IMG/VR virus record: IMGVR_UViG_3300047375_000738
Length of the DNA stretch: 64,000 bases
Origin: a virus
Lineage: Duplodnaviria > Caudoviricetes
Reading direction: 5' to 3' (one strand)
Every line of letters begins with the position of its first letter. The stretch's first letter is position 1. The notes beneath the pieces were generated by a model. That model saw nothing but the letters and a program-made list of their open reading frames with translations. It was not told the DNA's origin and did not search any database. The translations under genes were made by a program, and so were the position numbers. Below are positions 57,049-59,042 of this stretch, in pieces.

Positions 57049-57200
57049 TTGTTATCAATTCTTCCTTTGGTTCCACAATGTGGGCAATGCCAAGTTGTTC
57101 TGTCTGCACAATACTTGTCTTCCATTGTTGCAAACGTAAACCATCCTTTACATTTTATACATGTTAGATGCCAAATAATTTCTTTATGAGCTTTAAACAT
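57045..57200 (-). CDS. 51-aa zinc-ribbon protein (not in ORF track)
   Basis: MFKAHKEIIWHLTCIKCKGW...CPHCG; TATAAATA at 57206-57213. Confidence 0.6.
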   Translation of the reverse strand: MFKAHKEIIWHLTCIKCKGWFTFATMEDKYCADRTTWHCPHCGTKGRIDNK

Positions 57201-57214
57201 AAACATATTTATAT

Positions 57215-57292
57215 TGGTCGGGGATGCAAGATTCGAACTTGCGATCTTCTGCTCCCAAAGCAGACGGATTAACCAGACTTTCCTAATCCCCG
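57215..57292 (-). tRNA. trnP: tRNA-Pro(UGG)
   Basis: Cloverleaf CGGGGAT/ATCCCCG, loop TT-TGG-GA, TTCGAAT, A73, encoded CCA. Confidence 0.92.
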
Positions 57293-57294
57293 TT

Positions 57295-57371
57295 TGGTGC
57301 GCCCGGTAGGACTCGAACCTACGATCTACCCGTTATGAGCGGGGAGCTTTAACCAACTAAGCTACAGGCGC
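57295..57371 (-). tRNA. tRNA with CAU anticodon, most likely Ile2 (lysidine, reads AUA)
   Basis: Loop CT-CAT-AA. G1-C72, so not initiator. Has the TilS-type determinants C4-G69, C5-G68 and C29-G41. Encoded CCA. Elongator Met is not formally excluded. Confidence 0.85.
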
Positions 57372-57375
57372 AATT

Positions 57376-57449
57376 TGGCATCGGTGCAGGGAGTCGAACC
57401 CCGGCTTTCAGTTTTGGAGACTGACGTGCTACCGTAACACTTCACCGAC
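57376..57449 (-). tRNA. trnW: tRNA-Trp(CCA)
   Basis: GTCGGTG/CACCGAT, loop CT-CCA-AA, G73, encoded CCA. Confidence 0.9.
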
Positions 57450-57486
57450 AAAAAAAGCCCCTAATAAAATTAATTACTAGGGGCTT
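57450..57486 (-). terminator. Intrinsic terminator (attenuator) immediately 5' of tRNA-Trp
   Basis: AAGCCCCTAG-loop-TTAGGGGCTT; a run of 7 T follows GGGGC and ends one base before tRNA-Trp G1. Confidence 0.85.
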
Positions 57487-57514
57487 GTTGAAATAACTTT
57501 TTAAAAAGTCACAT

Positions 57515-57577
57515 TCAAGACGTACCCCGGTTATTCGGTGGCCAATATATTATACATATTGATATAGTCTTGAGCAT
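57515..57577 (-). CDS. Putative attenuator leader peptide MLKTISICIIYWPPNNRGTS (20 aa)
   Basis: AAGGA SD, then ATG CTC AAG ACT ATA TCA ATA TGT ATA ATA TAT TGG CCA CCG AAT AAC CGG GGT ACG TCT TGA. Confidence 0.75.
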   Translation of the reverse strand: MLKTISICIIYWPPNNRGTS

Positions 57578-57604
57578 GTTAAAATTCCTTATTTCTTACG
57601 TTCT

Positions 57605-57612
57605 TATTTATA
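57605..57612 (-). promoter_or_regulatory. T4 late-type promoter TATAAATA feeding the leader and tRNA operon
   Basis: Perfect TATAAATA, 27 nt upstream of the leader ATG. Confidence 0.75.
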
Positions 57613-57619
57613 TAAAATG

Positions 57620-57821
57620 ATAGGTTGGACTCTGTGAATACCAACAACCCCTTTGTAGAGCCACGCTCAAAAACAGGGAGCTTCATATTAAACGGTTACG
57701 TCTAAAAATACAACTTCGTATCTCTACGCTCTTGCATTGCCACTACAGCTATGAACCAAGTTACAACCTCTACGGATTGCCATTCCTTGCACTATCTAAC
57801 TTAGGATATCTCCTAACTTAT
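57620..57821 (-). ncRNA. Candidate structured non-coding RNA, class unknown
   Basis: Starts at the predicted TSS of a sigma70 promoter; no credible ORF; several hairpins. Confidence 0.4.
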
Positions 57822-57827
57822 GTACTT

Positions 57828-57856
57828 AATATAACAGCCTTTACTACCATTGTCAA
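57828..57856 (-). promoter_or_regulatory. sigma70-type promoter
   Basis: TTGACA-17-TATATT. Confidence 0.8.
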
Positions 57857-57871
57857 CCACTTTTTTGCATT

Positions 57872-58075
57872 TTATTTAAAATTCTTTTCAGTTCCGTCAG
57901 TTATTTTCTTTGCTAATCTGTATGGGAGGAACCCAAACATAAAAGGAAAAAATGCATGAATAATTCCTGTGATAAAAACTAATAGTGCTATACATGCAAA
58001 ATATACGGCATAGAAAAGATGCTCAAAATATGTTGTGCTTGCTTTCTGTAAATGCTTAAAATCAAATATTTTCAT
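57872..58075 (-). CDS. DUF6356-like small membrane protein
   Basis: HL...TYFEHL...IHAFFPFMF; SD AAAGGA. Confidence 0.6.
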   Translation of the reverse strand: MKIFDFKHLQKASTTYFEHLFYAVYFACIALLVFITGIIHAFFPFMFGFLPYRLAKKITDGTEKNFK

Positions 58076-58418: not shown

Positions 58419-58859
58419 TTTATTTATTTCGACCTTTAAATGTGTCTGTCTGTGAATGACAGTTAGGACACAACAGTCGGAGATTACTTGGCACATTGTT
58501 CTTATTGTTGCCATCTATATGATCGCACTCTAATACAATGTCTTTGCCGTTATGCTTGCTAATACCACAGCACTCGCAAGTGTAACCTCTTTCACGGGCT
58601 AAGTACCCGCTTTTGTCTTTAATCCAACCTGGAATGTTATTACCCCAAGTATAGTCTTCGTTAAGCCATCTGGTAATTCTGGCTTCTCTTGTGGCAGCAC
58701 CTTGGCAAGCATTGTTACAATACTTGTTAGTGTTTTGCCTAACCCATACATTCTCTTTGCCGCAGTGTAAACAGTTATAAGTTTTCATTGGTGTAATACC
58801 TCCAATGTATTTATCACTGCTCTACCTTTTCTGCACCAGCTGAGCTAAACAGGCTTTAT
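58399..58859. repeat. 25-bp direct repeat (58399-58423 and 58835-58859) duplicating the tRNA-Thr 5' end around the HNH gene
   Basis: ATAAAGCCTGTTTAGCTCAGCTGGT (- strand) occurs twice; a further 10-mer match lies at 58392-58401 and 58817-58826. Confidence 0.9.
58420..58788 (-). mobile_element. HNH (homing-type) endonuclease gene inserted at tRNA-Thr
   Basis: CECCG...LECDHIDGNNKNN..SNLRLLCPNCH; own ATAAATA promoter (58808-58814) and GGAGG SD; flanked by a 25-bp direct repeat. Confidence 0.85.
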
Positions 58860-58951: not shown

Positions 58952-59042
58952 TGGCGGGCAGCCAGGGATTCGAACCCTGGGAACGCTATTAACGTTCGTC
59001 CGCTTAGTAGGCGGGTGCTTTAAACCACTCAGCCAACTGCCC
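58952..59042 (-). tRNA. trnS: tRNA-Ser with ACU anticodon
   Basis: GGGCAGT/GCTGCCC, long variable arm, G73, loop CT-ACT-AA, encoded CCA. Confidence 0.85.

Follow-up and report, generated by a model that had tools for sequence, protein, structure and literature searches.

A probable leader-peptide transcription attenuator in front of phage tRNA genes

The tRNA locus and its leader RNA

The window analysed here is a stretch of 64,000 nucleotides from a marine phage, in which a family B DNA polymerase, a ClpB-like ATPase, UvdE and radical-SAM proteins are encoded. All coordinates refer to this window, and the element under study, by which we mean the leader, its terminator and the tRNA genes, lies together with its neighbours on the minus strand (-) and is read 5' to 3' on that strand. 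It begins with a Shine-Dalgarno (SD) motif (AAGGA, 57586-57590) located 8 nt 5' of an ATG, followed by an open reading frame of 20 codons plus a UGA stop (MLKTISICIIYWPPNNRGTS, 57515-57577), a long AU-rich hairpin, an intrinsic terminator with a U7 tract and three tRNA genes. These are a tRNA-Trp with anticodon CCA (57376-57449), which begins 1 nt past the U-tract, a tRNA with anticodon CAU (57295-57371) that ARAGORN calls as Met, and a predicted tRNA-Pro gene with anticodon UGG (57215-57292). The locus is found in at least 14 seawater DNA runs from at least 13 studies, and six metatranscriptomes contain part of it. The tRNA region of the window also harbours an HNH endonuclease gene (58420-58788 (-); PHROG, E down to 3e-22) directly 5' of a tRNA-Thr gene, and a tRNA-Ser gene (58952-59042 (-)) carries the anticodon ACU with A34, an uncommon feature in bacteria and phages.

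The first-pass annotation of this region had proposed three mutually exclusive hairpins, 1:2, 2:3 and 3:4, spaced like those of a classical attenuator. When the minus strand was checked all three proved to be real and to lie where they had been placed, and ViennaRNA reproduces each of them. Hairpin 1:2, the anti-antiterminator (57524-57542), pairs GCC-A-CCG (57542-57536) with CGGGGU (57529-57524), and its segment 1 begins at the last G of the UGG codon. If segment 1 is masked the RNA folds into the antiterminator 2:3 (57480-57528, -16.8 kcal/mol), in which GGGGU (57528-57524) pairs with GCCCC (57484-57480), GU with AC, UGAA (57517-57514) with UUCA (57492-57489), and GUGACUUU with AAAGUUAU in an inner hairpin (57512-57505 with 57500-57493). 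The terminator 3:4 (57450-57486, -19.5 kcal/mol), the only strong one in 5.5 kb, has a 13-bp stem with arms AAGCCCCUAGUAAU (57486-57474) and AUUAUUAGGGGCUU (57467-57455), the loop UAAUUU and seven Us (57456-57450), and abuts the tRNA-Trp gene. The antiterminator of the window, with segment 1 blocked, is not far weaker than the terminator with which it competes.

Two further helices surround hairpin 1:2. P0 is an extra conserved helix, seen both in folding and in the family alignment, in which the start codon and codons 2-4 pair with the stop region; its 5' arm UCAAGAC (57567-57573, codons 2-4) is matched by GUCUUGA (57515-57521), which includes the UGA stop. As the 3' arm of P0 also supplies the 5' side of the antiterminator's middle part, P0 and 1:2 together hold that whole strand. 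The second, the likewise conserved AU hairpin Pa (CAAUAUGU-AUA-AUAUAUUG, 57543-57561), has a 3' strand that ends in the UG of UGG. P0, Pa and 1:2 together make up the closed conformer, which is modelled as the terminating one.

The minimum free energy fold of 57445-57600 (-) contains both hairpin 1:2 and the terminator, and this 156-nt region is considerably more stable than its shuffles (-46 against -26.5 +/- 3.6 kcal/mol; z = -5.5). In the naked RNA of the window 1:2 wins over 2:3 (-24.0 vs -21.4 kcal/mol). A stalled ribosome was modelled with UGG in its A site by removing the RNA as far as 13 nt beyond the U of UGG and also cutting it 5' of segment 4 before folding; folds preceding segment 4 were used because equilibrium folding of the full-length RNA, in which the terminator is always kept if the footprint only is masked, is uninformative for a process that is kinetic. 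The resulting antiterminator is more stable than chance (-16.8 against -8.9 +/- 2.1 kcal/mol for shuffles). The free C-run is also captured in about half of the trials (50-62%) when the upstream part is shuffled with its dinucleotides preserved, which favours a simpler reading, namely that the stem is the plain terminator of an upstream manA-like RNA and a small ORF, the tRNAs arising from constitutive leak-through and the other pairings playing no part in regulation. What goes beyond chance for 2:3 is its stability, plus its conservation in relatives, and not the capture of the C-run as such; an antiterminator about 10 kcal/mol beyond shuffles and 92% paired over 77 variants speaks against a plain terminator, which, taking in the evidence on promoters and codons given below, we consider improbable.

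A family of leaders in phage genomes

Relatives of the element were retrieved from IMG/VR with an exact 23-mer plus the tRNA-Trp core and subsequently with a degenerate pattern covering segment 2 and the terminator end. The family comprises at least 121 IMG/VR loci and at least 77 unique variants; the pattern fixed the G-run, and one clade (the L017 clade: L017, L138-L144) was found through other anchors. The family is phage-only. The element is absent from the bacterial and archaeal genome contigs searched, where the sole match, in an Oscillospiraceae MAG (L145), has neither hairpin nor tRNA and was discarded as a chance match. BLAST of 57150-57900 against 50,697 cultured phage genomes returned tRNA-level matches alone, the leader occurring in no cultured relative, and the element was not found in the relatives recruited via a neighbouring 244-aa protein (L001-L008). 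Rfam searches at E up to 10 yielded no match to Trp_leader (RF00513) or to the T-box (RF00230); the only hits were at chance level and far under their gathering scores (L10_leader 25 bits, trpB motif 22.6 bits), and at the gathering threshold tRNAs alone were matched in 12 relatives.

Among the matches listed, tRNA-Trp is the first gene downstream in 119 of 121 loci. The gap between the U-tract and tRNA-Trp is usually 1-4 nt (at most 3 nt, counted from the sixth T of that tract, in 48 of 75 variants), which leaves no space for a tRNA-Trp promoter, so that read-through is needed to reach the gene. About a fifth of the relatives (L015, L020, L021, L024, L025, L028 and about 10 more loci) have a conserved insert of 72-96 nt between the U-tract and tRNA-Trp; it contains a long-range stem, ACTACACTA...TAGTGTAGT, and has no Rfam match at the gathering threshold.

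Covariation was measured on an unfitted MAFFT alignment of the 77 variants. The closed conformer is 87.9% paired over 15 pairs, with 128 cells changed on both sides, slid controls being 38-50% paired, and none of 500 shuffles reaches its score; hairpin 1:2 by itself is paired in 81.8% of family cells. The P0 pair at the first base of the start codon is A-U in 59 variants, G-C in 18 and unpaired in none, and UCAAGA/UCUUGA changes to UUAAGA/UCUUAA, the stop (TGA or TAA) covarying with codon 2. Pa displays compensatory changes at three pairs, and the terminator covaries as well, with C-G in 37 and U-A in 34 variants at one pair, for example.

The antiterminator is paired in 91.9% of family cells (39-59% for slid controls), but its covariation is not significant in the 77-variant alignment, whose G-run was fixed by the search pattern (121 of 500 shuffles reach the score). 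The G-run and C-run are nearly invariant, partly through that pattern, and the signal is weak for this reason. Covariation, which the first-pass annotation had named as a means of checking the hairpins, is thus borne out for the closed conformer and the terminator and is thin for 2:3 itself, a point in favour of the plain terminator. The covariation of 2:3 rests on the L017 clade, where segment 2 reads GAGGGC, segment 3 GCCCUC, segment 1 GCUCU or GCUCC and segment 4 GGGGGC (GAGGGC in L138 and L142); all four segments have changed in concert, in a manner compensatory for 2:3.

A ribosome placed at UGG in the model leaves all four Gs paired with the 5' arm of the terminator in 74 of the 77 variants. 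This open state averages -19.2 kcal/mol and is as stable as the terminator (-19.0), whereas shuffles average -9.5 (z = -3.9). The classical logic of 1:2, 2:3 and 3:4 put forward at the outset is upheld in the window and in 74-75 of the 77 unique relatives. In the naked RNA of 69 of 77 relatives, 2:3 is favoured over 1:2 (mean -24.9 vs -20.4 kcal/mol). The closed state must consequently be kinetic rather than thermodynamic, and termination without stalling would rely on the order of folding and on a ribosome at the stop codon.

Evidence for translation of the leader comes from the same variants. All 77 possess an SD (AAGGA itself in nearly all), a start codon (ATG in 59, GTG in 18), an ORF of 15-24 codons and an in-frame TGG. 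The distance between the start codon and the G-run, both of them landmarks defined by the alignment, is 40, 43, 46, 49, 52 or 55 nt in 71 of 77 variants and thus moves in steps of three; in the six exceptions the stops have moved. Frame 0 is open in 77 of 77 variants, compared to 26 and 21 for the other two frames. Relative to the G-run, the stop codon is placed at +11 in 71 variants and stays within -2 to +24 throughout the 77, which means that a terminating ribosome would always cover the 5' strand of the antiterminator. Two variants, L022 and L092, have their stop ahead of the G-run and still keep the GGGGUAUGUCUUGA block, so this block is constrained as RNA.

That the most conserved block is RNA-constrained even outside the ORF (L022), that P0 and the terminator covary strongly and that UGG complements the tRNA-Trp anticodon would also suit a structured non-coding RNA, be it a small RNA, an RNase P/E processing or stability module or a T-box-like binder with UGG as its specifier, the ORF being incidental. 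We regard this as very improbable: indels follow a periodicity of three nucleotides, SD and start are kept, the frame is open in 77 of 77 variants against about 30% in the others, 10 variants retain UGG although the base that pairs with its G in Pa has been lost, and neither a T-box nor any other Rfam family is matched beyond chance at E up to 10. Hardly credible is the converse proposition that the 20-residue product is a functional micropeptide with a role of its own and that the RNA structures merely tune its translation. Its termini are conserved (M-x-K-T-N-T at the N-terminus, G-G-M-S at the C-terminus), but the C-terminal conservation resides at the nucleotide level, as the ORF ends before this block in L022 and L092 and continues through it in L107, L114 and L129; the central residues of the peptide differ widely in both sequence and number, and the strict linkage to tRNA-Trp would be left unexplained.

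A promoter with a match of at least 10/12 lies 22-35 nt 5' of the leader start in 67 of 74 relatives. Since tRNA-Trp comes first and close to the U-tract, and since the leader has its promoter in these 67, the predicted transcription unit in relatives consists of promoter, leader, terminator and tRNAs. The window is atypical in that its nearest promoter is a weak sigma70-like candidate (TTGGTA-16-TATCAT, 9/12; 57617-57644 (-)) 39 nt 5' of the leader start, while a strong sigma70 promoter (11/12; 57856-57828 (-)) is situated 250 nt upstream, 5' of a manA-like RNA. This RNA of about 200 nt (57614-57816 (-)) matches the full Rfam manA model (RF01745) with 45.7 bits (gathering 55.2; E = 1.7e-10), and its depth in metatranscriptome contigs, about 2,900 vs 17-30 in the flanks, marks it as stable and abundant; RNAs of the manA class have been described in marine metagenomes and in T4-like cyanophages (PMC2864571). 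The manA-like RNA also contains a 35-codon ORF (57579-57686 (-)) whose stop is separated by 1 nt from the ATG of the leader (TAA-C-ATG); this ORF is unlikely to be a gene.

The abundance of the manA-like RNA in one metatranscriptome exceeds that of the leader about 100-fold, which favours a plain terminator behind it. However, 67 of 74 relatives have a leader promoter of their own with no manA-like RNA in front, the position of the stop, the reading frame and TGG are all conserved, and the codons of the leader follow the tRNA cargo, something not expected of a passive terminator. A metatranscriptome contig of 274 nt (57375-57647) runs from the 3' part of the manA-like RNA through leader and terminator to the end of tRNA-Trp; it is a weak hint of read-through into tRNA-Trp, as DNA carry-over in the RNA library could also give it.

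We rejected a possible promoter within the TTGACG/TTGACA block of the antiterminator, since its -10 is poor, the block reads TTAACG in variants with a GTG start, and the transcript would still carry the entire terminator. The T4 late-promoter box TATAAATA is present within 110 nt 5' of the leader start in 30 of 74 unique relatives, and the window has a copy at about 57602-57595. The box falls within the spacer of the sigma70-like promoter in L012 and L017 and is replaced there by the near-match ATAAATA in L010 and L022 (22-60 nt upstream of the leader start in these four), an arrangement that suggests overlapping early and late promoters in relatives.

Leader codons and tRNA cargo

The codons proposed to be sensed in the window are codons 9-12 of the leader, ATA ATA TAT TGG (57542-57553, with TGG at 57544-57542), and altogether its four ATA codons and TGG match the CAU and Trp tRNAs downstream. 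In order to compare codons and cargo across the family, we took the 72 unique leaders with complete downstream clusters and considered the four codons before TGG. Leader ATA (codons -4 to -1) goes together with a downstream tRNA(CAU/UAU) in 19 leaders (both, codon only, tRNA only, neither: 19/2/0/51; p = 1.8e-15) and a leader Gly codon (GGN) with tRNA-Gly(UCC) in 4 (4/0/0/68), and tRNA-Cys never occurs without a leader Cys codon (TGY; 38/23/0/11). Associations of TCN with tRNA-Ser(UGA) and of CAR with tRNA-Gln are weaker. For Ile-ATA, Cys, Gly, Ser and Gln, five of the seven tRNA types, no codon set is a stronger positive partner than the cognate one.

Edge-disjoint pairs of leaders that differ in a tRNA were drawn on a best tree that was built without the codon columns and is weakly supported. 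On this tree the codon changes in the same way as the tRNA in 29 pairs and in the opposite way in none (13 and none for ATA alone); an independent-pairs test confined to supported branches leaves three pairs, too few for significance. Within the clade whose leader peptides have the unusual ending WPSRKWGMS (L088, L137, L037, L087), codons for Cys, Gly and ATA match the cargo in 12 of 12 comparisons.

Proline codons behave differently. They follow TGG in nearly all variants, with or without a tRNA-Pro gene, and leader Pro codons show no association with tRNA-Pro in the 72 leaders. Segment 1 lies on Trp and Pro codons, as first placed; the demand for C-rich bases in this segment accounts for the Pro codons better than a sensing of tRNA-Pro does. 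The ubiquity of Pro codons irrespective of tRNA-Pro would also favour an attenuator of the same architecture in which the stall is caused by the nascent peptide, either through an EF-P-dependent pause at W-P-P or C-P-P or through TnaC-like sensing of free tryptophan, and the Pro-codon leaders mgtL and mgtP as well as TnaC are precedents for stalls of this kind. Yet the residues at +1 to +3 after W are variable (PP, PL, PS, CP, CL, CS, YP), the spacing from W to the stop ranges from 3 to 12 codons, the C-rich bases are required for the pairing of 1:2 with the G-run, and the ATA, Gly, Cys and Ser codons vary with the cargo in a way that favours the sensing of tRNA, making a nascent-peptide stall quite improbable.

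The identity of the CAU tRNA bears on the match with ATA. Across the family it accompanies ATA-rich leaders, as does tRNA-Ile(UAU). The window copy has an elongator-type G1-C72 pair together with C4-G69 and C5-G68, pairs that fit the TilS determinants of tRNA-Ile2. Judging from these features it is probably a lysidine-type tRNA-Ile2 that reads AUA, despite the ARAGORN call. TilS is encoded by some pelagimyophages, phages from which curli genes have been reported as well (PMC7029224). The tRNA-Ile(UAU) genes of L037, L041, L062, L113, L121 and L137 measure 92-94 nt according to ARAGORN, which is unusually long for class I; an intron or an extra arm is possible.

Proposed mechanism and relation to known attenuators

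The element combines a short SD-led ORF, regulatory codons cognate to the cargo (Trp, ATA), an intrinsic terminator between the leader and the tRNA genes, an antiterminator that shares strands with it, a hairpin 1:2 that a ribosome could cover and a stop codon placed such that the antiterminator is blocked. Our preferred interpretation, to which we assign a probability of roughly 0.7, is that of a ribosome-mediated leader-peptide transcription attenuator that serves as a sensor of tRNA supply and controls read-through into the phage tRNA-Trp, tRNA(CAU) and tRNA-Pro genes; every step of the mechanism outlined below is derived from sequence, folding and comparison.

Transcription would arrive from upstream, and a ribosome would initiate on the 20-codon ORF. 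Where decoding is fast, the ribosome at UGA would sit on the G-run and on the long hairpin 2:3 at its 5' strand, leaving segment 3 to pair with segment 4, and RNA polymerase would halt 1 nt short of tRNA-Trp. Without a ribosome, P0, Pa and 1:2 are expected to fold first and to hold the 5' strand of the antiterminator, and again the terminator would form. Where the cognate charged tRNA is scarce, the ribosome would stall at UGG or at the closely preceding ATA codons, covering segment 1 and keeping P0 open, so that the G-run could pair with GCCCC once the latter has been made; this pairing would block the terminator and the tRNA genes would be transcribed. Their products would relieve the stall and thereby provide a negative feedback on tRNA supply. 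Attenuators are known to respond to tRNA level, as in the hisR mutants of Salmonella.

The closest parallel is the trp attenuator of Escherichia coli (trpL; RF00513), which likewise has a short SD-led ORF with Trp codons, a segment 1 at or after the Trp codon, and mutually exclusive hairpins 1:2, 2:3 and 3:4 followed by an intrinsic terminator and U-tract; the energies of 2:3 and 3:4 in trpL lie in a similar range. In contrast to trpL, the phage element would control tRNA genes rather than biosynthetic enzymes, and the product of the regulated genes would itself be the sensed molecule. Its leader contains a single Trp codon where trpL has two; in classical attenuators the regulatory codons stand in tandem, and this difference counts against our interpretation. 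Its stop codon comes after segment 2, within the 5' strand of the antiterminator, the P0 helix is additional, and there is no similarity to trpL in sequence or to its covariance model at E up to 10.

The use of several codon types as inputs of one leader is reminiscent of thrL (Thr and Ile) and of ilvL in front of ilvGMEDA (Ile, Leu and Val), in that ATA, TGY, GGN, TCN and CAR near TGG follow the downstream genes as multivalent inputs would. Unlike in thrL and ilvL, the inputs match the tRNA genes of the operon and not amino-acid pathways, and the codon set shifts between close relatives as tRNA genes come or go. The T-box riboswitches of Firmicutes also sense a specific tRNA and switch between terminator and antiterminator, but they bind uncharged tRNA directly, in a manner independent of translation, and target aminoacyl-tRNA synthetase and amino-acid genes, whereas the phage element has no T-box match and the evidence favours a translated ORF. 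With regard to its genomic setting, the cluster resembles those of T4-type phages, in which tRNA genes are likewise grouped in a T4-like genome; the window encodes a family B DNA polymerase.

Leader-peptide attenuation is textbook knowledge for amino-acid operons. Our literature search did not find it described for tRNA genes, nor leader-peptide control for the tRNA clusters of T4 or other phages. The mechanism is therefore of a known kind, and its target, its feedback logic and the evolving codon set would be new as far as this search shows. A bolder reading, which we think doubtful, takes the element for a programmable sensor of decoding capacity whose input codons are rewritten with the gain and loss of tRNAs, and hence for a counter-defence or host-range device and not for housekeeping feedback. 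Replacement tRNAs would then be switched on when the host tRNAs for those codons run low, owing to host shut-off, to a host with a different tRNA pool or to anticodon-nuclease defence systems.

The element is common, being carried by at least 121 IMG/VR contigs, and it might be used as a small, naturally occurring biosensor that reports whether a specific tRNA is available. If the attenuator interpretation is correct, it would account for the expression of promoterless tRNA genes that lie 1 nt behind a strong terminator, lend support to the CAU tRNA as a decoder of AUA and provide comparative evidence that sensed codons co-evolve with the tRNA cargo; phages, in that case, would tune their tRNA supply to measured translational demand.
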